NCBI GenBank assembly: GCA_905178155.1
Contig: CAJINV010000011.1
Span: 2,313,331-2,377,330, forward strand
DNA length: 64,000 bases
Direction of reading: 5' to 3'
Source: Amoebophrya sp. A120
Taxonomy: Eukaryota; Protista; Dinoflagellata
The translations under genes and the position numbers were made by a program. Positions 4,369 to 64,000 of this stretch are shown here, in pieces (position 1 is the first letter of the stretch; each line of letters opens with the position of its first letter). The notes below the pieces were generated by a model, which saw nothing but the letters and a program-made list of their open reading frames with translations, did not search any database and was not told where the DNA came from.

Positions 4369-6216
4369 ATGAAGGCGCCTTTCTTCATTTTCGCCGCCGA
4401 TGTTTACTCGTCCACCTTGCGCTTCATTGCGACCTGTAGAGCATTCACGACTAGAACCTCGGCCCAGGTCGTGCAGCCTGTATCGCGCACTACGACTACT
4501 GCTTCGTCCAACACCGAGGACATCGTTGCTGCACGATCCGTGAAGATGAGAGAACATCTTCAGGCAGGAGAACCGCTTCCCGCATTGGAGGAGCTAGCGC
4601 GGAGATACGAGCGCGATTATCCCCAGACAGACTTGAGCAAAGTTTACGTGGGCCTCAGGAAGGACAAGGACGGCGGGGGAAGAAAAAGTAGAATTCGCGG
4701 AGTGTTTGCAAAGGTGAAAATAAAGAGAGACGAACTCGTAATGCAAATTCCGCAGCCATTGATGTTTCGCTGCCAGCTTCGCGATGTGGATCCGGCGGAA
4801 GGAATGAAACAGTGCACCTACGACTTCGTCAGAGTCATGTTAGCAGCAAAAAGGCGAGACGATGCTTTATTGTTGTTGATGTCCGAATTGGAAATAAATA
4901 AGACCACAAGCAGCGACCACGGCGGTGCTGTCTTCAACCCACAGAAGATGGCCTCGTTTCTCGACTACGTGAAATTTCTCCCAACGCCAGACGAGAACCC
5001 GTCCTTGTCCCGACTGCCCGAGCCGATTCTCCAGGACCTTGAACCCTTTTCGACCACTTTTGCGAGGGCGCTGGAACATGCGCGCAGCACAGCGAAACTA
5101 CGTGCCGATGCGCAGGAGCACGACGCTCTGGTCTCGAACGAATTGGGCCGCGGGGGCAACAAGGCGGTCTTTAGTGCGGAGGTTCTGCACCACGCGCACT
5201 TTCTCCAGACGAAGCGCAGCCAGCCCATGTTTTCCGACCCGAAGAGGGCTGCGCTGGTCCCCTTTTTGGACCTGATCAACCACCACTGGAATGACCCGAA
5301 CGTGGTGTGGGCGGGGTTTGCGGAGACCCGCGGCTTATCAAATGCAAATTAAATGTTTGGGTCTGGAAACTTGTGATGCTGACTGGTCATAGATAGTTGA
5401 ACAGCCATGCCGGTGCAGCCAGGAAAAGATGTTTTCGGCGCTCTTTCATGTATAGCGCGCAATGCAAACTGAATTTCCACTTGTATTACGCATCAAAAGG
5501 TCCTCTCGTGCTTTTGTGGGTCCGGCAACACAGATTTTACAGGAATGCCGGACAAGCAATACAAGTTCCACGTTTATTTCCGACCCAGATCGATATTTGC
5601 AAAACATACGGCTCGCCTCTGTCGGGCATCGAAGCCGTTCGGGCCACTCGAACCATTTTGCCCGGGGAAGAACTTTTGTTAAATTATTGGGCCCCGAAAA
5701 CGCTCACCGACCAGCTTCGTGTGAGCGCAGGACTCGCATACCATCCTGACTGGAGCAAGTATCCCAAGAAAAGAAATGTGGCGATATACAGTTATTTTAC
5801 GTACACATTTGCTTATAACTGGAGAACAAAAAAAAGATATGAATGAACCAGGCTTCTACCACGCCGCGTATCCGGCATGTCGACACCAGAGCCTGTCTGT
5901 TTGGCTTGGCCTGCAACACGACATCAATAATGTATTCTTTACTGTAGCTGCAGAACTTTTTTCTTTGCATAAGCTCCTACATAAATACACAGAAGGCAAC
6001 GAGACCGCGAACGAGCGCCTCGTGTCGTCCTGGCTGTTCTGCCATCCGGCGCTCATCAACAATACCGTCGCACCAAAGCTGCCCCCGAAAATGTGCCAGA
6101 CGTGGCAGCAGTGGCTAGCAACGCACCGCGCGACTTTGGCGACCGCTTTTCCGATGCAGCTTGACGTAATCGACTGCTTGTATGCGGATCTGTGTGGACG
6201 AGGTGCCGAGGAGTAG
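4369..6216 (+). CDS. SET-domain protein lysine methyltransferase (Rubisco-LSMT/SETD3-like), 2 introner introns; start approximate
   Basis: RGVFAK, LVPFLDLINH and RATRTILPGEELLLNY motifs are joined in frame once elements 5336-5608 and 5760-5971 are removed. Confidence 0.8.
5336..5608. mobile_element. Introner, family A (TATCAAATG...GGGTCTGGAA TIR)
   Basis: TAT...ATA ends, imperfect TIR, DR CGGCT/CGGCT; removal restores the SET-domain frame. Confidence 0.85.
5760..5971. mobile_element. Introner, family C (TATCCCAAGAAAA TIR), degenerate
   Basis: Ends TATCCCAAGAAAAG and TTTTTTCTTTGCATA; only a short AAG repeat; removal gives WSK-LLHKY. Confidence 0.65.
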
Positions 6217-6877: not shown

Positions 6878-9492
6878 ATGGCGAGCCCTGGGACGACGAC
6901 AAAATTCGGCAAGCCGTCGAAGGCAGTAGCGTCCAAAGTCTTCGTTGTTGCGTCGGCACTTCTAGGAGGAACAATACAGCGCGGCCTCTCGTCAACACTA
7001 TCCTCTTTTCCGAGCCGGAGCCATTTCGTTCTCGCCCAGGAGTATGATCACAACGACCGAGCGTCATCTTCTTCACGTAGTAGTCCTTTGTTCTCTTGGC
7101 TGGATCAGCAAGAGCTGGAGTGGCAAAGACATGGCGACGACGACCGCCCCCTCATAGAGTCCCTCGTACCCGTCGGAGCGCTGCATGGGACCGCTTTGTT
7201 TCGGGACAAGATCAAGAAGAGACAAGAACTAGTACCTGGAATAAAGACCAGAAGAAGTACAACTTCTACAACTACTTCCGAGCTCGACGTGGCGCGGAAA
7301 AACCTCAGAACCGCGTCTACCCTGGAAGATGAACAACGACCCGAAGTCGACCAGCACGACAACTGGATGCGCATGCTCACACGAACGAAAAATGGCCGCA
7401 AAGTGCTCGCGAAGCTGTACGCGCGAAGCAAACCGGGCGAGCACCCGGACGCCGTTTTGGAGCAGCACCTCGACACGGTGATCACGGAACTCCGGGACGA
7501 GGAGGAGAGGGCGAGGGGTGGTGTATCCGAGAAGACCACAAGAACGTCCTCTGGTGCAACTACATCAAACCGAGGGGACTCGGTGTCTGCGGGAGGTACT
7601 ACGACTAGCGCCTTACAAACGAAAGAACAAGAGCCGATCCAAATCGTGCAGAATCCGGCGCTGAAGCTTTACGTGGACAATCTGGACGTGCTTTCCAAGC
7701 AGGCGGAGACCGCTATGAGACAGAGAAAAGCTAGCAGGGAATATTTGTAATGCAAAAACAAATACATGAAGGCAAGGATTTGGATTCTGTCTTGCGATGC
7801 GTGGCCTAAAAACCGTGCTATGGGCCTCTGCGCATGACAAATTTATTTGGCTAGTTATTTCTGCATTACAAATGTGGCTATGTTAGCTTTTCTCTGCCGG
7901 GATAACCGCGGACTCGCAGTTCCGAGCCGCGATGAGCTACGGGAATATGGCGTCGGCCGAGCTGGACGAGCTCGGCGTGGACGACAAAGGAAACGATTTA
8001 CCCTATCCTGAGTAAAAACGTACACACACGACCAGAGTTGTGATGGGATTTGCAAAGACAGGAAGACTTGTAATGCGCATCCCCATGAGAGCCATTTCCA
8101 ATCGTGTTTTGGAATTTGTGATGCTGTGAACAGGATGAGCAGATGAATCTGTGATGCGGCTGCACTTGCTAACCTGCACTACACTGCAGAGTGCAACTTG
8201 TCATGCGTGACTCACAAAACTCCTAGGCTTGTGCTGCACAATCCGCATCCTGACTCTGGTGTGGGTACGTTTTTACCTAGGATATACCCTACTCGAAGAT
8301 GGTGGCTATGTACTGCAAAAGTACAACCGTACGCGTATGAATTGCAGTCATGCGTGACAAATATGCTTCTTGTTCTTGCCAAGGTAAATCAGCGTCACAA
8401 CTTCTCTTTGTCATGCTGATGTTAAATTTGTATTGCAGTTTATTGCAATTACTACTAGTACGATCGATGCACTTTTGCAATTCATAGTGTCGGATGTCCA
8501 GCAAAAGCTGGACCAGCGGCGAGACAAACTGGAAAAGGAGCTGGACCGGAGCTCGCACTTGGCCGAGCACGTGCTCAGCGCTGGTCTGAAGGACACTCTG
8601 GCTGGGCGAGGCACCAGGATGCGGAAGGCGGATGAAGGGTTGGAGGAACGTACTTCTATGTCAGGTTGATGATTCTATCGAAGAGCAGGATTTCGTTCTC
8701 GTACGTAGTGCAGATTTTCGCGATGAAGAGGTGTTTTTCTGATGCTCATGCTTGTTTGTCCATGAAAGGTGTACTCGTTAAATATCGCCGTAATATCGAT
8801 AAAGCACCAGCAAAAACTTGTTCTATCAGGCGTAACGAAAAATTCCGACGGGACAAAGACGTACCACTTGACAAAGGAGGAGACAGTGGACTTGAAGAAT
8901 CAAATCGATGAGCACACGCACGTGGACCCGCGACGGCACAAGGAGGCGAATCTGAAAATCGACGAGCTCCTGCAAAACCGACTGGACGATGCGAATGACC
9001 ACTTGCGTAGCATGCAGCTGTATCAACAGAACAAACTGTTCGGGCCGCGGAAGGGGTTGGCCGAGCTGGTGGACAAAGAAACATTTCCCGCGAGGTATTA
9101 CAATGAAAAATGCTCCCACCCCCGAACTTGGGAGCATTTGTATTGCAAACCTTTCCAAATGAAACACTCGCCCGCTTGCATCTAGCAGCATCACAGATTT
9201 CCGATCGTGAGTAGCAAAAATTTGTATTGCAAAAGATCCCAGCAAGAGCGGCGCTTGTCATGTAAGCGATGCGATACACGCCTAGAATCAGCATCAGAAA
9301 GATTCATACTCCTTTCATGCATGACAAAAAGTTTATTTAATTTGGAAACTTAAACTTTGCATCACAAAATTTTGCAACTTCGGGGGTGATGGCATTTTTC
9401 CTCGCGATACGAGGTCGCACTACGAAGCTCTACCCGTGGCCCCGGCGGTGGATGCGCAGAAAGCCGTGAATTTGGACGAGGAAGGGGACTAG
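6878..9492 (+). CDS. Hypothetical protein with an N-terminal hydrophobic segment and a helical/coiled C-terminal half; 4 introners plus 1 probable GT-AG intron (8650-8829)
   Basis: Continuous frame after removing 7714-7904, 8004-8284, 8307-8486 and 9096-9409; TAG at 9490-9492. Confidence 0.65.
7714..7904. mobile_element. Introner (TAT..CAGAGAAAAGCTA TIR)
   Basis: TIR tatgagacagagaaaagctagca / tgttagcttttctctgccgggata; DR ACCGC/ACCGC. Confidence 0.85.
8004..8284. mobile_element. Introner, family B (TATCCTGAGTAAAAACGT TIR)
   Basis: DR TACCC/TACCC; reverse-complement homolog of 17375-17653. Confidence 0.92.
8307..8486. mobile_element. Introner, family D (TAT..TGCAAAAGT..GTAC TIR)
   Basis: DR GTGGC/GTGTC; frame restored (KMV-S-DVQQK). 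Confidence 0.8.
9096..9409. mobile_element. Introner, family E (TATYACAATGAAAAA..CCCACCCC TIR)
   Basis: DR CGAGG/CGAGG; inverted homolog of 15397-15726. Confidence 0.9.
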
Positions 9493-10467: not shown

Positions 10468-11681
10468 ATGGGTAAACTAACGACAAGCTCGTCCATGCCG
10501 GCCTTTCCGGTCGGTTCCGCCGGAAAACAGATACCGTCGGGCTTTCATATCAAAATGAAAAGTGCTTCACCTACTTCCCCAGAACTGTCATGCCAAGTAC
10601 TTTGTATTGCATTTTTCCAGTACTTTGCATTGCATTTTTACGTAGCATGCATCCCGACCATGACACGAAACTGACTTTGCAGCGCTAGTAGTAAACATAG
10701 CTGCCGCCCCGTATTCGTTCTGGGGTAGTAGGGGCCCTTTCCAACATGATACATCAAGGCGCACCTCGCTATAGTTTCGGAGCGGAAGTGTATTATCTGA
10801 AGTTTCCTTTGAATGATAGATTCACATGGCGCAAGAAGCGTTCAGCATTTATGATTTCACGCTAAAATACTAGCCGTTTTGATGTCTTTATTCGTCCATT
10901 GGGTCGCTTCAGTCTCCTTCCCACGCGGCGAACCAATGAACCCATGACATAGCATGACTGACGGCCAAATTTTTTTTCCAAACCATAAACAGCTACTGCA
11001 AAACCCGCGCAAGTCCCAGATCGGCGTACCTCGGCGTGATTGACACGCCCGGTCCGGGCACGTACGAAACCGACCTGATTCGCCCGGAGCAGAGGAACAT
11101 GCCCAAGTACAGCATACCGGTGCAATTGCGCGACAAGTCGAAGCTCACCTACATCTCCTACAAGCATTTCACCACGCCCGGGCCAGGGCAGTACGAGGAG
11201 GGTGCCGTGGGCAACAAAGTGATGAAAAAAACCGCACCACTGTACTCGCACGGGCACCGGAGACCCGAAGCCAAGGGGTACTGGACGAGGCCAAACCCCA
11301 GTCCAGTGGACTACAGGAAGGAGAACGCGCACAGTAAGATAGTTTTCCTGAATTCGGTCAATTTTTTTTTGTTGCTGTCGCATTTTCCGCCGTAGTTCCT
11401 ACCATGAGTCTAACGATTTCTCTGTTGTGTTGCGCACGTTCTTTGTTGTACTTACAATACATGCCAGTTGTTCTTGAAGCCGAGAGAGAAGGCTCATAAG
11501 TACTTACTTTACGATACTTGTTTTTGACCTCCTTCACACAGACATCCTTCTCCGCGTCTTTCCGAAATGGAAATTCGGCACAGAGCAGAAAGGCAAGTCG
11601 CTGACAGCGAAGAGCTCTACCGGACGGAGTGTGGGGCCGGGAACGTATCGACACGCGACCTGTCTGGTGCCCGCGAAATAG
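10468..11681 (+). CDS. SHIPPO/sperm-tail PG-rich repeat (ODF3-like) axonemal protein; multi-exon, internal exons approximate
   Basis: TPGPGTYE, TPGPGQYE, PSPVDY and VGPGTY repeats with PKYSI/PLYSH/PKWKFG linkers. Confidence 0.75.
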
Positions 11682-12527: not shown

Positions 12528-13332
12528 AAGGGAGTGAAACTTCGAAGGGAGTCAAGGGAGCCAAGGGAGGAAGATAAAACTTGTACAAATTGCCTCCCCT
12601 AAAATCATCGCAAAAATCCATGCTATGGGCGCATTTACCGGCCACCGGTTTGGGCCCTGCTGCCCCCCCCGCTGCGGCCCCAGTTTTGGCCGCGTTTAGG
12701 CTTTGGCTCGCTGCCGAAGGTCCTGGCCTCTTGAAGAAGGTGAGGGCTTCTAGAGTAGCCCCCGTAAACAGAAGTCGCCGGGGCGGCCTGGCCTCTGCCT
12801 GGCAACATAGAGCGTGGAGCCGAAGGACCGCGTAAACTGTTGCCGTGGCCATGTCAAGTTTCCGCTGTCCAGGGGAAGTTGAGGCAGCCACCTCAGCAAT
12901 TTGCTTATCGAGATCTTTCGCGCGAGGTTCTGCGTGACCAGATTCAACGTCATGCCGAGCAGAGAATACGAATGAAGTGGAAATGTTGCAGCGGCCACTT
13001 CGACTTTCTTCAATCGGGAAAGAGTTGCAGCGGCCGTCGGAGCGCGCCGCAAGTGTGAGGCCCACACGCGTAGCATATGCAGCCTGCTTCGCATTGATGC
13101 TTCGCAACATTCCCACATGTGGGCGTATGTCCTACATGTTGCACGTGCCTCGCCGCGCGCGCGCGCAGCGCGCGGCCCGAAAAATTTTTGTGGTGTGCGC
13201 ACACATGTCGACTCGCGCGCGCGCAGCGCGCGCCGCGAAAAATTTTTGCTATATGGCCATCGCATTGGCGCGCGCGACTGCTTTTTTAACTTACTCCCTT
13301 GACTCCCTTGAAAAGTTGCGCTGTACTCCCTT
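12528..13332. mobile_element. 805-bp non-autonomous TIR element (MITE-like), intergenic
   Basis: Ends AAGGGAGT...AAGGGAGTCAAGGGAG and CTCCCTTGACTCCCTT...ACTCCCTT; GGC on both flanks (12525-27, 13333-35); GC-rich interior with no credible ORF. Confidence 0.7.
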
Positions 13333-13482: not shown

Positions 13483-16400
13483 ATGGATCTGCTTCACGAG
13501 ATGCGCAAGCACGCGGGGCCGCGGCTGACCGTGGGCTTGTATGACAGTGCACAACTACTCCCCCTCCCCCCCCATCTGTAAGTATAGTACGAACGGCTTT
13601 ACGAGCATCAGCAAGAGTGCCGGTTTTGCATGACAGATTTGCACTGGAGTGTAGTGCTATTTGGGGCATTAGATGAACTTGTGATGCATAATAGTGAAAG
13701 GAGGGAAAGCGTGGATTTGGTATTCTGCATGAGAAATGAGAACGAGGGGGAGTTGTGCATTGTCATAGCTTGCCCCAGGAGTACATCAAGAAATTTCTCG
13801 TGGAAGACCACCAACTCGTGCTGGCGATCCAGCACGCGCACGAGAAATGGAAACAATTAGATCCCGCGCAGACGTACCGGAAGCCGGAGGGGCAGCTGAT
13901 CGCGGAACTGCAACAGGGGTGGTGCCACCTGTACCCCGAGGACACGCGGAACCCCTACGTCCCGCTGGCCGCCAAGGGGCCCTGGATCGTCACCATGTAT
14001 GGGGCCGTGCTGCACGATAACGGCGGCTACGGCATGCTCGGATTCGGCCACTCCCCGGACGCGGTGATGAAGGCCATGTCCGAGGACGTGGTGATGGCCA
14101 ACATCATGACCCCGGCCCTTATGCATTGCAAAAGAATCGTATTGTAGTATGACTTGCATGACAAATTTTCTTAAGAACAAACACAAAGGTAACTGCTACA
14201 ATTTGGCATGCTAGTCCAGGTAGAAGATCGGGTTTGTGATGCATGATTTTGATTGCAAAAACCTCGTACTGCGACGGCGATACTTTTGCAATGCATAGCC
14301 CTGTATCAACTGTAAAAATGTCTGGGTCTGGAAGAATCCAACTTGTCATGCTGATTTTGGATTCCAAAAAAATCTGTATTGCATGAGCAGCAAAGCGAGT
14401 CCAAGTTTTGCTACACGGAAAGAGCATTTGTCATGCGGTATAGGCATCAGGAAGCCCTCACAAAATCTGTGATGCTAGGGCATGCATCACAGACATCAGG
14501 AGCCATGCAAAATGTGCATGACAAACCTGGAAATCTTCCAGACGCAGACATTTTTACATTTGATACCCTGGGGCAGAAACAGTTCATCGACGCGTTGCAC
14601 AAGGAGATCGGGTACCAAATGTAAAAGTGTCTGGGTCTGGAAGAATGCAACTTGTCATGCTAAATCTGAAGCATGCGAAAATCTGTGTTGCATGATTACC
14701 AAACGTCGTCCAGTTTTGACCAAGTCGGGAAGGACTTTCTCATGCAGGATAGGCATGAGAGAGATCGCGCAGAATCTGTCATGCTAGGTCCTGCATTCCA
14801 GACCTCATGGGTCATGGAAAAGCTGCATGACAAATCGCGCATTCTTCCAGACCCAGACACTTTTGCATTTGATATCGGGCACAACCGCCCGGACGGGTGC
14901 CCCTTCAGTGGGTTTCTTCTCATGAACTCCGGTTCGGAAGGGAATTCCGTCGCGGACCGGTTGATCGACATCCACACGGGGACCGTGATGGCCGAGCCGG
15001 AAAACCGAAATAAGAAGGTGAAGTGCGTCGCGCTGAAGGGCTGCTTCCACGGCCGGACCTACCGCCCCGCCCTGTGGACGGACGCCTGCCACGAGCGGTA
15101 CAGCTCGGCGGGGGTGTACTCGATCATGAAGTTATCCGAGAAAAAAACTGTGTTAGTGTAGGTGGCGTGAGGTGACAGCATGAGAAATCTGTTCTGCATG
15201 ACAGAAAAAGCATGTCATGCGCAGCTACTAAGTGAAAACACAAATGAAATAGGACTTCATGGTTGGCTAGCATGACAAGTCTAACAGTGTTGCATGCTTT
15301 GCATCACAGACTTACACTTACACAGTTTTTTTCTTGCATAGAAGTCCTACGAAGAGGAGTACTGCTGGATCTGCGAGGTGAACGACTGCGCCGACCTATT
15401 ACCATGAAAAATGCCCCCACCCCAATAAAAGTTGCAATAATTTGTGATGCGAAGTTTCCAAATGAAAACTTTTTGTCATGCATCAAAGGAATATGAGTCT
15501 TTTCTTAATCTTATCTTTTTGGTGCAGAGTCTAGGCGTATATAGCATTGCTTGCATGCGCATGGCAAGCGCCGCTCTTGCTGGGATCTGTTGCAATACAA
15601 ATCTTCGCTATTGACGATTGGAAATCTGTGATGCTGCTAGATGCAAGAGGGCGAGTGTTTCTGTTGGAAAGGTTTGCAATACAAATGCTCCCAAGTTCGG
15701 GGGTGGGGGCGTTTTTCATTGTGATACGACCTGCAGCGGCTGTTTGACAAGGCGGTGAAGGAGAATTGCTTCATCGAGGCGATGTTTGTCGAGTCCGTCA
15801 TGGGGGAGGGAAATCCCGGCGTGGCCATCACGGCGGAATTTTTCGCGAAGGCACGGGACTTAACCCTGAAACACAACTCCATGCTGCTTGTGGACAACAT
15901 TCAGGCCGGCATCCGCACGACGGGAAATCTTTCCATCGTGGACTACCCGGGCTTCGAAAAGATTCCCGGCCCGATATCCAAGAAAAAAACTGTGTTAGTG
16001 TAACTTTCTTTGGTTGCCAGCATCACAAATTTGCTCTACATGACCGAGAAAACCTGTCATGCGCGGCTTGTAAGGGAAAACACACATGAAAAGAGGACTT
16101 CATGGCTGTCGGGCATGACAGATGTAACTCTGTTGCATATTCTGCATTACAGAGTTACACTTACGCAGTTTTTTTCTTGCATATCCGGACTTCGAGGTGT
16201 ACAGCAAGGCGATTAACGCGGGCCAATACCCGGTCTATGCATTGCGAATATGTCTAGGTCTGGAAACTTGTGATGCTGAACTGTGCACGACTGAAATACT
16301 TCCCAAGGCAGCCAAGCATGACAAGGCTGCCGAACACTTTGCCATGCGCAGTCCGCATGACAAGCTGCGCTTTTATATGACACAAGAGGGCGTTTCATCG

Positions 16401-46200: not shown

Positions 46201-46641
46201 TGCTCGACATGCGTGATCGGCTCGCTTCCTATGTGTTTTCCCTTCCTATCTGCGCATAGCAAGTTTTTCTTGTCATGGCAGACAAACTTGTGATGCTGTT
46301 TTCCCAAAAGACTTACACTAAAACAGTTTTTTCCTTATTCTTGGATACTTCGCCGTCTGTTTCCGCTTCAGCGAGAACCTGTGGCTGGGGATCTTCCTGG
46401 GCTTCCTGGTCGGCCAATTGGTTTTGTCGGTCCGGGCCTCGTATCCTGTGCAAAAGTGTCGTACTCGTATTGCAGTCATGCATTACAAATCCTTTCGTTA
46501 AAAAGGTAAAATCCGCATTACATCATGCTGAACAAATTTGTAATGCATTTATACGAGTACGATACTTGTGCAGCTCATACCTCGTTGGGCGAGTCGCGCC
46601 TGGCAGACACCGCCATGATTGACCATAGGTTTCTGCTCTGA
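37276..46641 (+). CDS. TMEM67: Meckelin (ciliary transition-zone protein), with 12 introners and several GT-AG introns
   Basis: Signal peptide and Cys-rich N-terminus; CECLSNLCALQMY; FLIDRE; SIWRSLFVGNELSE; NFVDICSLANVSVFIMDEPHHGYYIHGR; C-terminal LGESRLADTAMIDHRFLL*. Confidence 0.92.
38576..38866. mobile_element. Introner, family B
   Basis: DR AAGCG/AAGCG. Confidence 0.85.
38940..39229. mobile_element. Introner, family B
   Basis: Ends in ACA; DR GGGCT/GGGTT. Confidence 0.8.
39426..39679. mobile_element. Introner, family A
   Basis: DR ACCAA/ACCAA. Confidence 0.9.
40694..40979. mobile_element. Introner, family B
   Basis: DR CAGGT/CAGCT. Confidence 0.88.
41651..41872. mobile_element. Degenerate introner
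   Basis: TATG...CATA ends; DR CCTCC/CCACC; frame restored. Confidence 0.7.
42356..42601. mobile_element. Introner, family H
   Basis: DR TACGC/TACGC; inverted homolog of 45155-45400. Confidence 0.8.
42789..43041. mobile_element. Introner, family A
   Basis: DR GGGGC/GGGGC; homolog of 16236-16486. Confidence 0.9.
45155..45400. mobile_element. Introner, family H
   Basis: DR AACCA/AACCA. Confidence 0.8.
45578..45794. mobile_element. Introner, family F
   Basis: DR AGATG/AGATG. Confidence 0.85.
45901..46056. mobile_element. Introner, family D
   Basis: DR GCGTG/GCTTA; removal gives MAYGPE. Confidence 0.8.
46133..46347. mobile_element. Introner, family C
   Basis: DR CTTCG/CTTCG. Confidence 0.9.
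46442..46579. mobile_element. Introner, family D
   Basis: DR CCTCG/CCTCG; 138 bp. Confidence 0.88.
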
Positions 46642-50618: not shown

Positions 50619-53600
50619 ATGAGCAGCACTGCGAAGAAGAATGCGGAGTTGCAAGATTGGGTGGTGGAGGCGGGCGAGGTACAACTCGACTCGCCCGAGC
50701 CCGTGGAGGTCGTGCAAAAAGTGCGCGATTATGATGTCGGGACACCAGCTTCATTGGGAACAGCGCAAAATAGTCAAAATTCCTTCGGCCGTGGCGGCCC
50801 AGCTTCGTCTTCGACGGCAGAATATGACATGAACTGGGGTCCCGATTATCCTGCAACGCCGACGTCGCAAGCGGCTTCATTGCAGAGAGAAGCGCAGGAA
50901 CAACGTCAAGGTCAAACTCTGCACGGCGCTACGCCTACGCAAGAAGTGGAGTACCAAACGAGTGCTAGCAAAAGAGCGACTTCCTGGGACAGACCGAACG
51001 ACGTCTTGGCCACCTCTCGAAAGGATAGCATAATATCGTCTAGCCCCGCTGGTGGTGCTGCTTCCTCTATGAGTGGCCTAGTAACGTCTTCCAGCTTCAA
51101 TATTGACGACATGTTTGACGCCGCAGGTAGTTCTGCGCGCGGGCGAAATAAATCGCATTCAAATTCTTCCAAATCAGCACAGCCGCCACGGTCGGACAAT
51201 CCAGCCATCCTCACATCAGCCGGCGGAACCACAAGGGCAATTCCTGCTGTGCAGAAGTCCCGCCGCGAAGCGGATACCAAGGCGCTCGACGCAGTGTTTT
51301 TGAGCCGTCGAGAAAATGATGAGTCGATCGAGGTTGCTGGGGAGAAAAGAAATTATGTTGAGAAAGGAAGAGGACTACAGGAGCAACCCGCTCTACTGGA
51401 TCCAAGCCAAAATCACGGCGGAAACGGCACGCCGACAGGGTCAGCAAGAGACGAAATATCTCCTGGCCATGCCCGGAAGGGATCGGCAGGTGTAAAAATG
51501 GCAACAGCAGAATCAGGAGGTCACCAGCACCGGGGGGAGTTGCAGCAAGTAGCTCTGGATGCGAACAGGAACGAAAAAACACTGACACATGAAGAGCACG
51601 CCGCTGATGTGGATGTCGTGCCGAAAGGAGGATCAGAAATGCAGCAGCACGACCTCCTCGACGACAGGGGACAACTACACTCGAGTGTACAACGCACACA
51701 TACAGGAGTGGCAGCCCGGACGACCGGCGCAACTACATTTAGCGAACAACGTGCATCAACTGCTGACAAGACAAGGACAACTCTATCTCCGATCCTGTTG
51801 AACCCAGCAACAGTTGGAGCCCGCCCAGCTTCAGCGACCTTTGAGCAGCAGATAGAGCAGTATAGTGACCACGCGATGTTGTCCGCAACTTCAACATCAA
51901 CTACAACATTGCGCACGAAACACTATACCAGTGAAGAACAAGATTTTATTCGCGCCGGCAAAGGTGATCTCATGAATAAAGATCAGCGAGTGGACGAACT
52001 ACAAGCGGAAGAGCAGCTGTGGATCCTGGCCGACGATCCCATGCTCGAGGAAGAGCAGGGGCCGCTGCAGCCGAGTTTAGTGTTCCCCTCCGGCGTGGTG
52101 CCGGGAGGTGCAGCTGCCTCTTTGGGCGAGCAAACCACCGCAGCAAGCAGAGACGGATTTTTGGGGACGTCGACGGCGGAACAAAATGAAAATCATCAAG
52201 AAAGTGGTCTTCTTCTGGACAACAACAATCTTTTTGCGGGTCCTTTGCAGAAGTCGTCTGACCAACAAGGAGACCACGACAGATCACAGGATGAAGAACA
52301 AGAGGGAACAAGCAACAAGATGAGCAATCTGTACAATGCGGCGCAGCTGTACGCGGAATACAACCGAAATTTGGAGGTCTGGCGGATGCTGCTGATTGAC
52401 TTTTTCCGGTTCCGGCACAAGAACCCCGAGAAAGTGAAAGAGCTGGTCCGCCGCGGGCTGCCGGAGTGCCTGCGGGGCAGCATTTGGCAGAAGCTGGCGC
52501 AGAGCCGCGAGTTGCAGTGGAAGTACCCCCGGAACCTGTACGAGTACCTGAAGCAGGTCCCGAGCGCGCCGTGCGAACCCGACATCCGGCGGGACACGAA
52601 CCGCACCTTCCCCAAGCACGTGCTGTACTGCGACCGGCAGGGGGTGGGGCAGCAGCAGCTGCTCCACGTGCTCCGGGCCTACAGCATTTTCAATCCGGAG
52701 GTGGGGTACTGCCAGGGAATGGGCTTCATCGCGGGGCTCCTGCTCTGCTACCTGCCCGAGGAGGCGGCCTTCTTCATGCTCGTGTCGTTGCTGGAGAACT
52801 ACCGCATGAGCGGCCTGTTCAAACTATCCTGAGTAAAAATGGCTCCACACCAGGGTCAAGATAGGAAATCTGCTAGACAAATCAACCAGCATTGGTTGTG
52901 TCGCATGACAAGCTTGTCCTGGTTCTGAAGCATCACAGATCTAGCGCATCATGCTGCTTGTAGCATTACAAATTCCAAAGCACGAATAGAAAATGGCTCT
53001 CTTGGGGCTCCGCATGAGAAACCTTTTCGGCATGCAGATTTGCATGGCATCCACTCTGGGTGGGGACGTTGTTACTCAGGATACAAACCCAACCTTCCCC
53101 TGTTGAGCAAGTACTTTTTCCAGCTCAACCTGCTGATCCGGATGCACCTGCCCAAACTGCACGACCACCTGCAGCTGAACTCGGTGGAGCCCACCATGTA
53201 TGCCTCACAGTGGTTCATGACGGTCTGCATCTACCAGTTTCGGTACTCGACGGTTTGTCGCGTGTGGGACATCTTCCTGGCCGAGGGCGTGAAGATCATT
53301 TTCCGGGTGGTATCAGAGTGCACAAGTAGAACTTCCCCTCGCCCTCATTTCTCATGCAAAATGCCAGGCCGACCATTTTTCTTTTTGTTTTTTGCCTCTT
53401 CGCACTCTTAGCATGACAGGTTCTGCTGGCAGCACTACAATCCTGATGAATTTGTCATGCGAAACCTGCTCAACTCTTGCCAACGCTGGTATTGCCATTG
53501 CTGTTCACACTATAAATATAAATGAGGGACGAGAGCAGGGGTGGGGAGTTGTGCACTCGGATAGGTGGCGCTGGCGCTGCTGAAGCTGAACCAGGAGAGC

Positions 53601-53981
53601 CTGCTGCAGTGCGGGTTCGAGGACATTTATCGCAAGAAAAAAGTGTTTACAGTTTTTACACATTGTGTTGCGGGGGCCGCAAGACAGACGACCTTTGTCA
53701 TGCAGGAAATACCTGCAAGCCTCGTTTCCTTCGTATTTTCCCTTATGTATGATCTTTGCCTTACTCTGCCACACTGAGAAAATTTGTGATGCAGATGAAC
53801 AAACTCCAACAAATGTGTAAGTGCAACACTTTTTTCTTGGGATAGCATTCTGCAGGTACTCAAGCTCGCCCCGGCCCAGACGGAAACGGAGCTGCTCATC
53901 CAGACCGCGCTGGGCATCAAGCTGAAAGCCTCCGTGCTCAAGGACCTCGAGCAGGAATTTTTGAAATCCGGACAGAAGTAA
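50619..53981 (+). CDS. TBC-domain Rab GTPase-activating protein (EVI5-like) with a long disordered N-terminus; 3 introners
   Basis: LVRRGLPECLRGSIW, IRRDTNRTFPKH, VGYCQGMGF, YASQWFMT, RVWDIFLAEGVKIIFRVALALL. Confidence 0.92.
52825..53083. mobile_element. Introner, family B
   Basis: DR CAAAC/CAAAC. Confidence 0.9.
53311..53563. mobile_element. Introner, family F
   Basis: DR GGTGG/GGTGG. Confidence 0.9.
53628..53844. mobile_element. Introner, family C
   Basis: DR ACATT/GCATT. Confidence 0.88.
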
Positions 53982-55497: not shown

Positions 55498-58400
55498 ATG
55501 AGGTCTACGGCAACTACTACCCGGGCGTGCTCTCCGGAGATGTTTGCGCTTTTCCATCTGTTTCTCCTCATCTTCAGCGCGGACTTTGTGGCCTTGCGAG
55601 GCGCGGCATCCTCGACCTCCAACGAACCAGGAACAACTGCTACTTCGAACCGGTCAAGACGCATCCATCTGCCGGCCTTTTCCCCGGTCGTGCAGCCGGT
55701 CGTGTGGCCGCCCGCAGCAGCAGCTCCCTCTGGTTTGCCCGCGATCGGGGCCCCTGCTCGGGCGTTTTCGAACGCTGCGCAGTGGCTCCACACGGCCGGA
55801 CAAAGTTGTTGCAGAGCTTCCACTGCCTCGTCCTGGTCCACCTCGTCGGCTGCATCTTCGAAGGACCCGTCAGCCGCGACGAGCTCATCTAGTTCCGGTG
55901 GGGGACCACGACAAGATCACGTTTCTGCAGTACCAGCACAAGAGCAGCCCAGCACGAGGGCCGCCCCCGCGAGGACGACTACCCCCAAAGCCGAGCCGAA
56001 GAACAAGAGTCGTCTCTTTCACTGGACGAGGACCAGCACGAGGTCGTCGGCTAGCAGCGCCACCAGCACGACTTCGCGGGGAAACGCGACGATGAACTCC
56101 AGTCGATCGTCCGGTACGGGAGTTTATAATTCATCTGATCCGTTCTCTAATCCTTATCCTACGAACAGTACTGATCTTCATCTTCGACGACCAAAGCCTG
56201 AACAAGAAGCAGCAGGGCAACGAGATGTTGACCACAAGGGTGCTGCGCGGAGTAGAAGAAGCGGCCTCATGAACAAGATGACTGCGGCCACTGGCAGCTT
56301 CTCCATCTTCAAACTACGGAAGAAACACAGAATCGCACCAGCTCCCGCGAACAATGGACCGTTGCATCAAGACCAGGACGCCCTCCGGAGCGGGAGTACT
56401 ACAACTGCTCGCACTATCAAATGTAAAAATGTCTGGGTCTGGAAGAATGCAACTTGTCATGCTAAATCTGAAGCATGCAAAAATCTGTGTTGCATGATTA
56501 CCAAAAGTCGTCCAGTTTTGACCAAGTCGCGAGGGAGTGTCTCATGCAGGATAGGCATGAGAGAGATCGCACAGAATCTGTGATGCTAGGTCCTGCATTC
56601 CAGGCCTCATGGGTCATGGAAAAGCTGCATGACAAATCGCGCCTGCAAAGGTTTTTGATGTGGTGCAGTCGGGTATGCATGACAAATCGCGCACTCTTCC
56701 AGACCCAGACATTTTTACATTTGATACGCACCCCTTTAAATACAACTTCGTCCTTCACCTCCCTAGTGCCTGACCACGTCGGAGATGAATCATCTCTGCA
56801 CTGTTTCAGCCGCCAGCACACGCCCGAGGCGGGAACTTCATCGGTTTTTATTTCGACGCCAGTTGTAGTAGATCCAGCAGCTGTTGGCCTTGGCCGCGCG
56901 GACATTTTCACGAGCCCCGAGAACAACTACCTGGGCGCAGGAGGTTTGAATAACACCTCCGCTTATTTGAAGACGGGCGATTGTTCCGCAATTCATTGCA
57001 AATCAAATCAAATCAAATCAAATCAAATCAAATCAAAACACCAAGAGCACCATCAAGTGGCGGCGGGGCCGCGCCAGGTTTATTTTTCCACATGGACGAC
57101 ACGACTTTGGCCGGACAAGAGGAAGGAGCGGCTTGTTCTCAGTTGTCCACCTCTGCTGGCGAAATGGCGGCCGGATCGCAGGACTCGTCGGGCGGCAAAG
57201 CGGAGAGTTTGATCAACACGGGTGAGGACTCAATGAAGCACCGCGTGCAAACGGGCTCGACCGCAGACCCGGGGTCGTTGCTCTCTCGGCCGAGCACGGG
57301 GTGCACCCCAGAGAACATGGCGAGTATCCCATGTGAAAATAGAGCGTGCTGCCCATCTTCCCAGACTTGCTGTCATGCTGACCTTGCATGATATTCAGAA
57401 GGTCTCTGCTTTCATCCTCGGGGCAAGGATCATTCTGCCATCAGAGCCATATACTCAAATCAGGAAGTTGAGAGAGATCCTGGATTCGCATTAATGCGGC
57501 TGCGCGAGCTATCAAACATAAACATAAACAGGCACGAGTTGACGCACGCTGCGGATTTAGAAAGAGCGTCATGCTCATCATGCGCAACAGCCATAGCCAA
57601 AATAAGCCCTCGACTTTCTATATGGAGCAGCGCAGCCCAAAAATGGGTCCTCGCTGGGTAAGTACAATTTTTTCCAACAGCATACCGAGCCCGAGATCCT
57701 CCTCTAAAGTGTCCCCGACAGAGAGCGCCGGGACAGAAAACGGAAACGCAGAACAGCACAACCTGCAGACTCTGGCCGAGACAAGCGAGAAAGACTCTGC
57801 AAGTGAGCGGCATTGGGTGTCCACCTCTTCAGCAAACGAGGACGGAGCAGCAATGTCTGGGAACAAAGGAGAGGCACAGCAGCTGCAGCGCCGCCAGAAC
57901 GAGGCGCCGCCCCGCTTTGGCAGCATGGCCGCGCGCGGGGTGGCTGCCGCCCCTGGGGAGGAGCTGCACGAGCAGCCTCTTCTTTTTACCCGCGTAGGAG
58001 CTCCTGCTTTTCGAGGGGAAGGAGAAGCCCTGCCGCGCTCCAGCGCGTCTTCGCCAAGCTCGTCAACCGAGGCGGAGTGCGAAGGTTGTGCCCCCGCTAA
58101 GGAAGTTTTCAACATCTCCGCGTCGCCGTTTACCGGGCATTATGCGTTGCTAGTTACAATGTGTGGGTCTGGAAGTAGTAGCATGTAGCTCTAGCTTGTC
58201 ATGCGAAGTCCTCTCGACCAGAAAAATATATAACAAAAAAATCAAAATGTAAATGTTGCATGTCCGCGTGATGCATGACAAATCCTGCCTTCTACTTCCA
58301 GATCCATCATACACATTTGCAATGCATAGGCAGTCCTCAGTGCCTTCGTCCAATTGTCCGGCGAAGATCGTGTTCAACAGTACGGCTCGCGGCCAAAGCT

Positions 58401-61400
58401 ATGCGGACAAGAATTCTGCTGGTGAAAAGCGTTCATCTTCACCATTGATGTCGCGGGCGCCGTCGGGCCTCGACGTTGACGGAGAACCGTCATTAGGGCG
58501 CGTATTGTGCATCGCGGCCGCGGCCACCTCTACCACATCATCTCAGTGCCTAGGAAGCAGCAGCGCATCATCTTCGGCGCCAAAGGATAAAGTAGAAACC
58601 CAGCCGCCTCTTGCTGCTGCACAGCAATACTACACACCCGCCTTTTTTCTGGCGCGTGGTCGGGTTACCTCTTCTGCAACCAGTTCGGCCCCGCAGGCTT
58701 CGACTTCTTCCTCTTTGTCCTCGACAGCTGCTCCTCAACACCTTGGGGGCATGGCACCGACTTTCGGGTTCCCGCGGGCAGAGGCGGAAACAGCAACGAG
58801 AGCCGGCGCAGCAGCAGCAGCAGCCGCACTTCCTGTACAACCACGCTCAAACAACTTCGTGAGCAGTAAATCTGAAGCAGAAAAGGAAACAAACGCCCGT
58901 TTCCGCACGAAATTGTGCAACGACGAGAACAAGCAACGTGGTGGCGGTGATGTACTTCTAGAGGAACAAGAACTACAACAAGTTGCACCAGTAGCGCTCC
59001 TCAACCAGCACCCCGGAACAACAAGGAACGGCGCAAACGCAACGGCCTCGGACCTGCAACTGCACGCCGGTCGGGATCCTCACCAGAACAACAGTGGGTT
59101 CTCGTCGGCGCGCCCGTCGGCCCTTTTTGCCGTGGGGGGCGGCGGTGGACAAGAATCGCACGAGGGCCTCCACCGGCTCGGCACACGCACAATCACAGAA
59201 CCCGATCTGCTGGCGGCCTTGGACCCTAGTACGGCCCAGCTTTCGTCATCGGACAACGAAAGCGAAGGTGACGATGGTGGCCACGATGCTGGTACAGCAG
59301 GGCAGCGGAAGTCAGCTAAAAATGGTCGCGGAGATGAGGATCGCGATGTCCTCGCGAGAGCATCGCGATCTTGCGACGAGCTTCGTGCATTGATCGAGTT
59401 GGAAGCGGATGGCTTAGAGGAGAGGACCAACTACGCCGGACTGCGTTTGCCACGCCAGTGGACCGGCCACTGGATGGAGCCAGACCTGCGACCCGCCGTG
59501 CTGCCCATCAAAAAGGAAGCCGAGCGGCAGGATAAGTTTCGTCCAAAGGGGCCTCGCCCCACGTTCACCGCCGCGGGGCGGCGGGAAGCGTTATTTACGC
59601 TCTCACCCACTGCCACTCAGGTGCAGCGTGCTGCCCGGTCGGCCCGCGCCAAGGGTTGTGCTAAGCTGGGGAAGGTGCTCCGAGAGCGGCGCGCGACAGA
59701 GACGTCCTCGTCCTCGTCTGAAAACGAGTCGGCTGGAGAGGACGAAGACATTATGTTCGCGTCTGCAGAGGACCACGCAGAGGTGGACACTCAGCCCGAG
59801 GTGGACCCCACTGACCCGTCCCAAGAACAAGATCAAGTAACGGGCGAACACCGCGACGGACAGGGACAAGGCGAAGAACAGGGGCGAGAGGATATCATAT
59901 GTAAAAACGTCCCCACACCAGAGTCAAGATGGGAACTGAGCAACACAAATCCAGAAGTTTTGGGAGCCATGCATGACAAGTTGCAGTCCGTAGTGTAGTG
60001 CATGTTAGCAACGACGACCGCATCACAAATTCATCTGCTTATCCTGTTTACAGCATTACAAATTCCAAAACACGATCGGAAACGCCCCTGAAGGAGATGC
60101 GCATTACAAATCTTCCTGTAATCGCAAATATGCATGACAACTCTGGGGTGGGGACATTTTTACTCAGGATAGAGGAAATTACGGGAGGGGCGGCGGAGGT
60201 GCATCATGTTGACGACGACTGGGTTATTGTGAGGAAAAGTCCCCCCTTCCCATACCAACCCGGGACAATTCTGAAAATTTGTGATGCTGATTTGTGACCA
60301 CAAATCGACTCTGTATTGCAAGAAGGCAAATCGAAAAAACCCCGCCGCGTTCTGCAGGGAATTTGTCATGCTGTGTGGCCTACAGAGGATGCGACTGCCT
60401 TGCCAGGCGCCTACACCAAAACGCCCCTACCCAGGCTCTTTATCTGCCTGCAGTCCTCTACTGCACGACAAAGCCGATTTGTGTACAGAAATTCCGCATC
60501 GCGGATTTTCATTTCGGTATGGGGCGGGGGGATGTTTCCTTTTGATATGGGTCGCGTTTTTTTCCCCGCATGATTGGCTGTATCACGGGGTTCAGGTCAA
60601 GGACGCGAGACTGCGGTGCTGGGTTGATCACGTTGAGGCAGTTGTCTGTCCGGATCCTGAAGATTTGGCGCCGCGCAGCGACCCGTACCCTTCGGAGGCA
60701 ACGCCGGAGTCACAATGCTCGAGCAATCATGACGTCGACAACGAGTCGAGGAGCTCGACGAGCTCTAGTAGCGCTGGCGACCAGGAGGTGAGCCAGCAAG
60801 TCAACAATATTGCCTCCGTCTCTTCGCGGCCCCATGGCGACGTCGAAGAGCTCCGGCCTGCCGCGGAACAACTTTTCATTCCGCACGGCCTCGATGATGT
60901 CAATTTGGAGCGAGAACAACCCCGGAGCTGCAGTCCGGCCCCGCGGGTGGTTCTGCAGTGCCGCCGCACGAGAGCCACTCGCCTCGCGTCGCTCGCGCCG
61001 GTGTATTCCAGCTGCACACCGGTCTATCCTTTGGAAAAACGGGGCCCACAGCACGACCTCCCCAGAGTCAAGAGGGGGATTTAGCAGTAAACAAATCAAC
61101 AAGGTTTCGCTGTTGCGCATGTTGACAAGTCTGGGATCGTAGTGTCATGGTGTTTAAGTAGTTGTGCAGGCGCATTACAAATCGATCATCCTATCCAGAT
61201 TGTAGCATGACAAAGACTAAGACAACCTGCCAGGCAGCATTAGAAAGTGCCCCTTATGAACAATATGTGGAGCTGGTGTGCTGGCGCATGAGAAACTTTT
61301 ATAGACATTCCAGTTTGATGATGCAGCTGCATGACACGTCTGGGGTGTGCTTGGCCTTCTTATTTTTACTCAGGATACGGGCATCGCGGAGGACAGTTCC

Positions 61401-64000
61401 CCCTTCGTGCTCCACAGCCGCGATCTGGCGGAGCCGATTTTGGTTTCGATGCAGGGCGGCAAGCCCGACGTGGAAGAAGAAGTCGTGCAGCGGAAAGACG
61501 GGGCAGCAGTTGCTGCTCCAGGCGGGGCAGTAGCTGCTGGCACGACCTTATCTTGTGCAAAAGTATCGTACTAGTATAAGCTGCATTACAAATTGACTTT
61601 AGCATTACAAATTTAATTTGTAATGCTGATCTACCTCGAGAAGGAGATTTGTAATGCATAAATGCAATTACTACGAGTACGATGCTTTTGCACAGGATAG
61701 ACCTGGTACGTCGAACAGCTGAACGACGGATATGGTGTTCTCAACTGTTGCATTCTCAACTGTATACATGAATTTGTGATGCAAGAATGGCAAAAGTCAA
61801 AGCAGGAAGGTTGCGCCTTGAGCATTACAAATCCCGCACAGATTTAGGCTCTCTTTAGCCCTTCCAAAACTTGTCATGCGAAGTAGCTCCACCTTGTGGA
61901 TGTTGATGCTCATTTTGCATGACGAATCATGTAACAGTTGAGAATGTAACGCTTGAGAACGCCATAACGTATCTGAAACGGTGTTGTCCGACGAGGAGGG
62001 CGCTTTTCTGCACCAGCAGTCCACTGCGGTGTTATGGCGGGAGGAAAGAATATCGCAAGAAAAAACTGTTTCACTGTAAACTTGTGATCCATAGAACGGA
62101 ATGCAAATGTGTTTGTGTTACTACACATGCAAGACATTGGATTTTTTTTTTAGCTGTGTTTTCCCTCAGGAAGCACGCATGCCAAGATTTCTTTGTCATT
62201 TGTAACAAACTTGTGATGCAGATCTTGCAAAATCATCACAGTGAAACAGTTTTTTCAAGGGATAAAGAACGCCACTGTGCCCCCTGCGCGGTTCTCTGCG
62301 CCCGTTTCTGTTGGGCAACCTCTCCAGTAGGATGACGGACTTGTGTATCCAAGAAGATTTTTGTGCGTGTAACTTATATTTTTGGAGGCATTTTTAGGTA
62401 TTTTTACAGCACAAGCAGCATTACAAATGCAAATCTGTCTGGCATGATGAGAACAAAAACCTGTCATGCGCAGATGATGCGTGAAAATATAAATAATGCG
62501 GCTCAGTCGTGGACGACCTCAGAATGGCAAGGCATATGTACAGCATGACAAATGATTATCATCTTGCATGTTGCGCATCACTTAGTTACGCCAACAATGT
62601 TTTTTTCTTGCATACTGTGGGCAGCCAAAATATGGCGTTCTCAAACGTTACATTCTCAACTGTTACATGCACTTGCAATGCAAGAAAAGCAAAAGTGAAA
62701 GTGGCAACGTGGCAGCTTTCGCATCACAGATTATGATGCTGTTTAGCCTTTCGAAAATTTGTCATGCTAAGCACCTTGATCAAGTGGAGGCTGATGGCAA
62801 TTTTGCATGACAAATTCATGTAACACGACTTGAGAATGTAACAGTTGAGAACGCCATACAAAAGGGGGGAGATGTGGAAGAACCGCAAACGAGTGGACCG
62901 CAGTCTCGCGAAGGTATGAGAGTGGTTCACAACTCCCCCTCCCCTCATTTGTCATGCAAAAACGCAGTTCCACTTCCAGGCACTGCCTCTCATCGCTACC
63001 TTGCATGACAGACTTGGGAATTATTCAAACAGTACTTATAAACCGCACGCATATTCGTCATGCGGAAGCTACATTTATTCTGACCTTCTGTCTATTGTTG
63101 TTCTTGCCTTGTTCAAATGAGGGTGACTCAGGGGGAGTTCTTGTGCTGCACTCTCATAGTCGGGGTTCAAACACGAGAAGCCACCGCCTCCCTGGATTTT
63201 CGAAGTCACAGCACCACAAACGTTGCCTTACCCGGGTGACGCCGACGAGTGCGAGGAATGGGAACGCATCCAGGCCAAGCTGCTAGACGAGTTGCGCCGC
63301 GTGCATATTGATCCGCACGATAAAAATGTTATCCCAAGAAAATAAAACTTTGTAGCGTGGAACTTTGATGATGCAACTGAACTGTAATAAGTATGCAACT
63401 ATGCAGATCGACATCATGCAGAGTGAAGATGAACATGAACACCCACAGCCACACTTATGAAAATATGCGTGGAGTATGCTAGTGCGCTTCCATAATTTTC
63501 GTGGACTAGTAGTACACCCAGGGCCAGGACATTGGGCACGTCAAAAACTTTCCTACTGCCGCGCCCGCTTCAATATTTCCATCGCGCGCTACTACTCAGT
63601 TTTTACGCACGACCACAAGGCTCTTATTCTGCAGGAGTCCTCTGCAAATATTTGGGATTCATCTCATCATGCTTATGTTTTCGTTTGCATTATGAGTGCC
63701 CGCGGCCACAGTTTTAAAAACATTTCCCTTGGATATTCCAGAAGAAGAGCCCCGACGCCGACGAAGAACAGCAGCAGAACACTGGCGAGGAGCAAGGTGT
63801 CGACCGGCCTCCCGTGGCAGCCAATGTCTTGCACGGGGCCAACCTCCCTGTCCCGGACCAGGCAACCGAAGCGAACGGCAGGCGGAGAGAAATGGTTCCT
63901 CTGGATGAAATATCCTGTGCAAAAGTATTGTACTGTAGTATTGCAATCATGCATTACAAATTTTTTTCTTAACGGGAAATCCGCAATACAAGTCTATTAA
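55498..64000 (+). CDS. Very large hypothetical protein, largely low-complexity, with ~14 introners; start uncertain, runs off the window end
   Basis: ORF segments join in frame across successive TAT...ATA elements. Junctions at 57001-57035 and ~57325-57630 are unresolved, so this could be more than one gene. Confidence 0.55.
56415..56726. mobile_element. Introner, family A, with a 50-bp internal expansion
   Basis: DR CGCAC/CGCAC. Confidence 0.92.
57001..57035. repeat. (AATCA)7 microsatellite
   Basis: Seven perfect 5-bp units. Confidence 0.95.
57325..57629. mobile_element. Possible highly degenerate introner; right end uncertain
   Basis: Starts TATCCCATGTGAAAA, contains TGTCATGC, and separates two coding ORFs. 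Confidence 0.4.
58141..58328. mobile_element. Introner, family A
   Basis: DR GGCAT/GGCAG. Confidence 0.85.
59893..60171. mobile_element. Introner, family B
   Basis: DR GAGGA/GAGGA; same orientation as 17375-17653. Confidence 0.92.
60225..60547. mobile_element. Introner, family E-related
   Basis: DR TGGGT/TGGGT. Confidence 0.82.
61025..61377. mobile_element. Introner, family B, degenerate
   Basis: DR CGGTC/CGGGC. Confidence 0.8.
61549..61699. mobile_element. Introner, family D
   Basis: DR GACCT/GACCT. Confidence 0.9.
61731..61966. mobile_element. Introner, family G (TATGGYGTTCTCAA TIR)
   Basis: DR ACGGA/ACGTA. Confidence 0.88.
62051..62264. mobile_element. Introner, family C
   Basis: DR AAGAA/AAGAA. 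Confidence 0.88.
62346..62614. mobile_element. Introner, family C
   Basis: DR TTGTG/CTGTG. Confidence 0.82.
62631..62858. mobile_element. Introner, family G
   Basis: DR CAAAA/CAAAA. Confidence 0.9.
62915..63158. mobile_element. Introner, family F
   Basis: DR GAAGG/GTCGG. Confidence 0.8.
63330..63735. mobile_element. Degenerate introner, family C-like
   Basis: TATCCCAAG...CTTGGATA ends; DR not recognisable, but removing the element plus 5 nt restores the frame. Confidence 0.55.
63911..64000. mobile_element. Introner, family D, truncated by the window end
   Basis: TATCCTGTGCAAAAGTATTGTACT left TIR. Confidence 0.8.

Follow-up and report, generated by a model that had tools for sequence, protein, structure and literature searches.

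How can a gene tolerate ten insertions that carry no splice signals? The question is raised by a 64,000-bp stretch of the genome of the dinoflagellate Amoebophrya sp. A120 (contig CAJINV010000011.1, positions 2,313,331 to 2,377,330; hereafter the window), in which short elements with terminal inverted repeats (TIRs), flanked by a 5-bp direct repeat, interrupt conserved coding sequence. Such elements belong to the introners already described in this organism. We report here that eight of them are missing, together with 5 nt each when counted in sum, from sequences that probably derive from RNA, that the flanking repeat carries no splice signal, and that an internal motif is common to the families.

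Elements with a 5-bp repeat interrupt eleven genes

The window holds 51 complete elements of 138–406 bp, spread over 11 same-strand genes (Table 1). Fifty of them, in 10 genes, were tallied, in line with the number given in the original prediction; the 51st (10548–10751) lies in an 11th gene, and the left end of a 52nd, at 63911, is truncated by the window end. Among the 50, 46 run from TAT to ATA, three from TAC to ATA and one from TAT to ACA, i.e. TAT or TAC stands at 99 of the 100 ends and TGT at one. The flanking repeat is exact in 31 cases, has one mismatch in 12 and two in 4, and is degenerate in 3; the predicted anatomy of TAT..ATA ends, TIRs and 5-bp repeats is thus borne out, 43 of the 50 repeats having at most one mismatch.

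When the window was scanned for TAT..ATA pairs whose flanking 5-bp repeat is exact and whose TIRs pair at 10 or more of 22 bases, 26 were recovered, as compared to a mean of 0.35 (maximum 3) in 20 block shuffles; the rest of the catalogue was added through end similarity and by eye. We also fetched 143 related loci with the TIR pattern (L001–L143; 489 kb), which partly overlap and over-represent one family. Among 355 pairs picked there on the TIR alone, the flanking repeat was exact over 5 bp in 240, over 4 bp in 1 and over 6 bp in none. We infer that the repeat is a target-site duplication (TSD); the loci share no genes with the window. Consensus TIRs measure 28–36 bp, and the elements have the traits of non-autonomous TIR transposons (miniature inverted-repeat transposable elements, MITEs): TIRs, a constant flanking duplication, no coding capacity and insertion in both orientations. 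Insertion sites are GC-rich (flank GC 0.59 versus 0.53), and segments below 45% GC hold 1 of 51 sites, versus 25% of the background. No TIR match was found in viral contigs, and no Rfam family for the elements.

Removal of L+5 nt, L being the length of the element, left the reading frame open in 46 of the 46 elements tested, whereas frame-shifting lengths left it open in just 1 or 11; L+2 and L+8, which are frame-equivalent to L+5, did so in 45 and 44. Stops are present in all three + frames of 39 of the 46. Because the frames had been picked under L+5, independent evidence comes from the alignment with homologues. After its ten removals the class III aminotransferase is a single open reading frame (ORF), and none of its 10 junctions coincides with a junction-specific gap in the alignment, in keeping with the earlier claim that deletion of the element plus one repeat copy restores the frame. 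Its best protein match comes from Amoebophrya sp. A25 (P0001; 86% over the exon and 75%, or 464 of 621 residues, over the model); the window's own aminotransferase protein is absent among the matches listed (best 120 of 366). Two other readings, a 4-bp repeat at 20276 and a GT-AG intron at 5760, failed the frame test.

Judging from their sequence, the host genes appear to be live. Copies within one family are at most ~96% alike, which implies that the coding sequence remained intact while the inserts aged. Pfam matches were obtained for the aminotransferase (PF00202), TBC (PF00566) and RRM (PF00076) domains; the labels meckelin, katanin p80, mitochondrial carrier and SET, assigned by eye, are presumptive. 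Elements are also found in RPB1 (L062:2269-7790 and L064:7521-7803, within L062–L064), which carries six, one of them 972 bp long. Two fall within stretches read as DTAV-KTSETG and GTIA-AQSVGEP, which we take to be widely conserved motifs.

Eight elements are missing from probable RNA

Sequencing runs were compared over window positions 44001–64000 in 4 of 10 runs. Run X1 is RNA as guessed by the tool, and its depth is near zero on silent stretches. Run X6 has an even depth of 26–35 on unique stretches; it may be the window's own source and represent a single stage. Between 45149 and 46580 the genome counts 1430 nt but one X1 contig only 433, and the shortfall is exactly that of five elements (972 nt) plus 25 nt. 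Another has 282 nt instead of 1026, the shortfall being three elements (729 nt) plus 15 nt. Eight elements with 5 nt each, counted in sum, are therefore removed from what is probably RNA, and the prediction that transcripts lose the elements holds in this form. X1 also contains contigs with element sequence, which fits unspliced precursors and could be DNA.

By contrast, X6 contigs cross the elements at 53311, 53628, 57325, 58141, 61025 and 63330 unchanged, at a depth of 22–28. Among the 15 joints listed out of 1008, none of them from RNA runs, there was no skipping of an element plus 5 nt in DNA. The original prediction had left it open whether these non-autonomous TIR transposons are removed from RNA or from DNA; the comparison of X1 with X6 favours removal at the RNA level.

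The repeat carries no splice signal

Splice sites were counted in elements of known orientation relative to the gene. A gene strand was assignable to 156 of the 284 locus elements with both the repeat and the internal motif described below, and the repeat is exact in 132 of these. None of its five positions shows a skewed base composition in these 132 sense-oriented repeats. When the 31 exact window elements were added (n=163), GT-AG was feasible in some register in 9 cases (7.5 expected) and GT/GC/GA-AG in 16 (19.7 expected). The repeat carries no splice signal, a result that we did not find in print, and the elements do not co-opt GT or AG from it. That most elements lack GT-AG boundaries is hence sustained. 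As a separate observation, the repeat starts of the 132 locus elements are spread unevenly over the codon phases (23, 44, 65), unlike those in the window (13, 17, 16). At 63330–63735, the decayed repeat with its flanking GT and CAG may represent conversion to a canonical intron.

Both orientations are represented within a family in same-strand genes (for instance, 2 and 5 copies in one of them), which we likewise did not find in print. The terminal stem is the feature that the two orientations share: an end-to-end RNA stem is predicted in 49 of the 50 elements.

Where the repeat copies differ, the mismatch reveals which copy the mRNA keeps. Past element 53628, an X1 contig resumes at 53846, which indicates that the right copy is not the source of repeat base 1, and a cut after base 1 would give a stop in an element of locus L055. 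Homologues have D or E at the site of element 16892, so base 2 is likely derived from the left copy; an Asp in 9 of the 9 homologues shown at 15975 assigns base 5 to the right copy. The cut would thus fall after repeat base 2, 3 or 4, if one register holds for all elements; we did not find this in print. Three further approaches were discarded: an attempt to polarize the mismatches through GC bias lacked power (24 mismatched elements), cases of mismatch drift towards GT-AG in one register pointed in both directions, and a constraint on both repeat copies was rejected because third-codon mismatches (20 of 29 in the loci and 5 of 21 in the window, counted by hand), once pooled, approximate the expectation for one free copy.

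An internal motif is common to the families

Counting both strands, the window contains 138 copies of the octamer GCAT[GCT]ACA. Of these, 135 lie inside the 50 elements, which cover 12,510 of the 64,000 bp, and the three outside them belong to the 51st element, the truncated 52nd and a remnant; three of the 50 elements lack an exact copy. In the loci, 1006 copies were counted in the 355 elements versus 13 in shuffles. In a set of 344 elements, composed of 294 locus elements with at most two repeat mismatches and the 50 window elements, the motif is present in 331 elements and in 113 of 123 clusters at 80% identity. The ends, too, have a consensus common to the families, TAT[CG]-N6-AAAA. These two shared features suggest that the families form one lineage: the original prediction of at least eight unrelated TIR families stands as regards their being distinct, not as regards their being unrelated. 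The motif string gave three unrelated matches in the literature and none in the text of the Farhat supplement, and we did not find in print a motif common to the families; figures, further supplements and subscription journals may hold it.

The motif is putatively a binding site on duplex DNA, most likely for the transposase. Its first inward copy lies 33–34 or 41–47 bp from the element end, and spacings between copies in the same orientation peak at 31–33. The mean cosine of the spacings is 0.42 at a period of 10.5 and 0.08 at 11; as it reaches 0.37 at 16, the spacing is suggestive at most of helical phasing on DNA. Relative to the interior, substitutions in the motif have a ratio of 0.14 on internal branches and 0.42 on terminal ones (the columns were chosen from the consensus, and sampling is sparse), a pattern that may lean towards selection during transposition. 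We also considered the motif as an RNA pairing element and rejected this: another motif is the pairing partner for just 308 of 1080 motif bases, and the motif has a single orientation in 82 of the 344 elements, which shows that pairing is not required.

Long copies encoding a transposase had been proposed as something to look for, and none was recognized. Five long candidates were present in the 489 kb of loci and the window, and no transposase was recognized in the ORFs of the four for which ORFs were listed. One of them, L015:505-1608, is a 1104-bp element with a TIR of 20/22, an exact 5-bp repeat and a GC-rich interior; its five ORFs gave no Pfam match. A 6.2-kb pair in L060 was not accepted as an autonomous element, since it seems to consist of the ends of two different elements with host genes between them.

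How the elements might be removed

We hold, with about equal belief and doubt, that the elements are removed from pre-mRNA by a stem-measuring cut-and-join activity, having been mobilized by an integrase-like transposase. The transposase would bind the TAT[CG]-N6-AAAA ends and the GCAT[GCT]ACA arrays and would insert copies in either orientation at a 5-bp staggered cut. In the transcript, the ends are predicted to pair into a long stem that brings the repeat copies together, and the element would then be lost with five bases, as the sums over eight elements in probable RNA suggest. Both cuts would be made inside the repeat after base 2, 3 or 4, i.e. 1–3 nt before the stem and 2–4 nt after it, with no base required. 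The least sure step is the chemistry, which may consist of endonuclease cleavage and ligation, as proposed for the non-conventional introns of Euglena, rather than lariat splicing.

Several points weigh against this scheme. For the eight removals, the evidence is two sums, one over five elements and one over three, in assembled contigs of a single run, and in the raw RNA runs X8 and X9 partial reads fall on element copies while the locus is uncovered. The register call is based on a handful of mismatches and on the assumption of a single register, and the degenerate repeats at 5760, 20276 and 63330 may not fit a strict ruler. Compared with the interior, conservation of the TIR columns is only slightly higher (terminal-branch ratio 0.90), and no transposase, nuclease or ligase came to light. 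Lastly, most spliceosome proteins are reported in A120 and GT-AG introns, recognized by eye, are present in the element-bearing genes themselves, which means that a spliceosome is on hand.

The main rival, which we regard as possible, builds on this last point: an adapted spliceosome without U1 would release the elements in lariat form, with two arbitrary bonds placed in the active site by the terminal stem or by a bound protein. The portions of PMC7789003 used here credit A120 with 83 of 89 spliceosomal proteins and with U2, U4, U5 and U6, not U1, and tunicate spliceosomes are described as adapted to non-canonical ends. However, the tunicate case is described as retaining AG-AN ends, whereas registers 2–4 have no donor or acceptor base preference, barring the T of TAT in register 4; removal in both orientations would moreover demand a branch signal on both strands. 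It is improbable that RNA polymerase II skips the element instead, with a motif-bound protein or a DNA cruciform causing the nascent 3' end to move from the left repeat copy to the right one and realign there. The 5-bp repeat permits such a realignment and the motif resembles a duplex-DNA site (single orientation in many elements, first copy at set distances from the end), but simple realignment would leave the whole left copy in the mRNA, in conflict with the right-copy base 5 needed at 15975, and the X1 contigs that hold element sequence fit precursors, if they are not DNA.

Excision from DNA in some cells or stages, as with the internal eliminated sequences of ciliates, would have only cleaned templates transcribed; precise loss of the element with one repeat and the transposon anatomy are what it would lead one to expect. 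We consider it highly improbable given that X6 traverses elements unchanged at unique-sequence depth, with the reservation that X6 may be the window source and one stage, and that no skip appears among the joints listed. Barely credible, finally, is that the joined forms are template switches of reverse transcriptase and the genes dead. A hairpin with a short direct repeat is the known geometry of such artefacts, and contigs derived from cDNA are compatible with them; coding sequence is nevertheless intact and conserved around diverged elements, and RPB1 is among the carriers.

A bolder version of the cut-and-join scheme, which we deem doubtful, would unite these features: in a single transposon lineage with helically phased protein sites, the bound transposase or a domesticated derivative would mark copies for non-spliceosomal, sequence-blind removal from nascent RNA. 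If true, this would amount to a second system of nuclear splicing, in which introns are defined on DNA and any insertion in any gene is harmless.

Relation to known systems

The system itself is already published (2021, 2025), and the link to Amoebophrya introners made in the original prediction holds. In the sections of Farhat et al. 2021 (PMC7789003) drawn on here, A120 introners measure ~240 nt, form many families without canonical ends, and have TIRs, a 3–5-nt direct repeat and ends made of TAT, seven variable nt and at least three A; the legend of Fig. S19 gives 5-bp repeats. The border position is left unknown, no family-specific inverted-repeat motif is reported, and a general mobilization by transposase in A120 is argued against. 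Unidirectional gene clusters are described as well, and the host genes of the window all lie on the + strand. The window elements match in inverted repeats, direct repeat, TAT + 7 nt + A-run ends, repeated families, non-canonical ends and removal from transcripts, with nothing different in kind; what goes beyond these sections is the uniformly 5-bp repeat without signal and the internal motif common to families. In Gozashti et al. 2025 (PMC12130899), the A120 family fam38 is a Ginger element with a 5-bp TSD and TA/TA termini, and our TIR DNA elements resemble it in ends and repeat length. In the 25 A120 rows of that work, out of 58, that were covered here, automated TSD calls are 2–6 bp or missing and most families are labelled as co-opting splice sites, in contrast to our counts, in which GT or AG is not co-opted.

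As far as the available part of PMC12501133 goes, Euglena non-conventional introns need paired ends with short spacers, circles are reported and non-spliceosomal proteins are suggested. The window elements likewise have (predicted) paired ends and direct repeats that blur the junction. Euglena introns, however, need CDG/CH'G with 3-nt and 5–6-nt spacers and a purine at the exon start, whereas the stem here starts TAT/ATA, the spacers total 5 and no purine is required (purines at repeat bases 3–5: 73, 78 and 83 of the 132 exact locus repeats). The introners of Micromonas, Aureococcus and Polarella, as presented in the excerpts of PMC9860276 and PMC11282704 used, are similarly MITE-like, with TIR, TSD and GC-rich genic sites; they have one splice site of their own and take the other from the TSD (GT/GC/GA-AG), which the window elements do not.

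Among the transposon groups treated in the consulted parts of PMC2836005 and PMC10045372, no single one of Ginger2/TDD, IS3EU/GingerRoot and IS481EU fits both ends and TSD length. TDD-4/5 of Ginger2 have a 5-bp TSD, and the 4–5-bp TSD of Ginger1/Ginger2 (TDD) matches our elements, but the TGT termini do not; IS3EU/GingerRoot matches in its TA..TA termini and not in its 6-bp TSD; the TNT..AYA ends of IS481EU resemble those of the window.

Other features of the window

Elements 14120 and 14304 are separated by six bases (14298–14303) and have overlapping repeats, the second insertion lying one base from the first; the overlap implies a micro-exon of ~1 nt. Remnants of elements are present at 24331, where a GT-AG intron in the carrier gene holds one element end, and downstream of that gene, where a fragment (24801–24870) bears the motif. 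The katanin-like gene contains a GC-rich insert of another type (32644–33350; ~700 bp), with a different TIR, a 6-bp repeat CATCCG and no shared motif; flanking frames suggest that it, too, is removed as a non-canonical intron. In the same gene, a direct repeat of ~43 bp (30518–30561, 31745–31788) flanks an insert of 1.2 kb that contains tandem repeats and GCGCGC runs, and similar GCGCGC-rich DNA is found at ~13130–13290.

Table 1. Elements and host gene in the window (window coordinates; repeat given as left/right copy where the two differ; L, element length)
Feature	Coordinates	Strand	Flanking repeat and remarks
Element	5336..5608		CGGCT exact; in SET-like gene (presumptive label)
Element	5760..5971		degenerate; frame needs L+2, 5 or 8; without exact motif
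Element	7714..7904		ACCGC exact
Element	8004..8284		TACCC exact; motif in single orientation
Element	8307..8486		GTGGC/GTGTC, mismatch at base 4
Element	9096..9409		CGAGG exact; 80% identity to 15397, reverse orientation
Element	10548..10751		TTTCA/CATCA; deletion opens frame in 11th gene
Host gene, class III aminotransferase (PF00202)	13483..17876	+	621 aa after 10 elements removed; no further intron
Element	13540..13767		GCTTG exact
Element	14120..14297		GCCCT exact; next element just 6 nt away
Element	14304..14565		CCCTG exact; predicted end-to-end RNA stem, z = -10.2
Element	14613..14874		TCGGG exact; TAC start
Element	15133..15340		GAAGT exact
Element	15397..15726		CGACC exact
Element	15975..16183		CCCGA/TCCGG; right-copy base 5 needed for conserved Asp
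Element	16236..16486		CGGTC exact
Element	16892..17162		GGAGC/GAAGC; TAC start; D/E in homologues, base 2 likely left copy
Element	17375..17653		GCTGC exact; 89% identity to 8004, reverse orientation
Element	19475..19726		TGAGA exact
Element	20276..20504		degenerate, 3/5 differ; frame needs L+2, 5 or 8
Element	23557..23764		GTGGT/CTGGG; in mitochondrial-carrier-like gene (presumptive label)
Element	27052..27313		AACAC exact; in RRM gene (PF00076)
Element	29828..30134		ACCTC exact; in WD40/katanin-p80-like gene (presumptive label)
Element	32355..32571		CGGGA/CAGGA
Element	38576..38866		AAGCG exact; TAC start; in putative meckelin-like gene (presumptive label)
Element	38940..39229		GGGCT/GGGTT; ACA end
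Element	39426..39679		ACCAA exact
Element	40694..40979		CAGGT/CAGCT; cut after base 3 would allow GT-AG
Element	41651..41872		CCTCC/CCACC
Element	42356..42601		TACGC exact
Element	42789..43041		GGGGC exact
Element	45155..45400		AACCA exact; missing from X1 contig (sum of five)
Element	45578..45794		AGATG exact; missing from X1 contig (sum of five)
Element	45901..46056		GCGTG/GCTTA; missing from X1 contig (sum of five)
Element	46133..46347		CTTCG exact; missing from X1 contig (sum of five)
Element	46442..46579		CCTCG exact; missing from X1 contig (sum of five)
Element	52825..53083		CAAAC exact; within TBC domain (PF00566); missing from X1 contig (sum of three)
Element	53311..53563		GGTGG exact; missing from X1 contig (sum of three), kept in X6 contig
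Element	53628..53844		ACATT/GCATT; missing from X1 contig (sum of three), kept in X6 contig
Element	56415..56726		CGCAC exact; 95% identity to 14613 across 228 nt
Element	57325..57684		GCGAG/CCGAG; kept in X6 contig
Element	58141..58328		GGCAT/GGCAG; kept in X6 contig
Element	59893..60171		GAGGA exact
Element	60225..60547		TGGGT exact
Element	61025..61377		CGGTC/CGGGC; kept in X6 contig
Element	61549..61699		GACCT exact
Element	61731..61966		ACGGA/ACGTA
Element	62051..62264		AAGAA exact
Element	62346..62614		TTGTG/CTGTG
Element	62631..62858		CAAAA exact
Element	62915..63158		GAAGG/GTCGG
Element	63330..63735		degenerate; GT 2 nt upstream and CAG 6 nt downstream; kept in X6 contig
Element, left end only	63911..64000		cut off at window end

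Significance

A literature search by topic returned no paper that resolves the removal mechanism; figures, further supplements and subscription journals may hold one. The Amoebophrya lineage has tens of thousands of introns without splice signals, and the window offers handles on how they are removed. The absence of base preference restricts the possible chemistry, and the 16 of 50 elements with one or two repeat mismatches are natural reporters of the cut position. The shared motif can serve both as bait for the protein bound there and as a marker for gene prediction. A sequence-blind, structure-guided activity that excises RNA would be new RNA biology.

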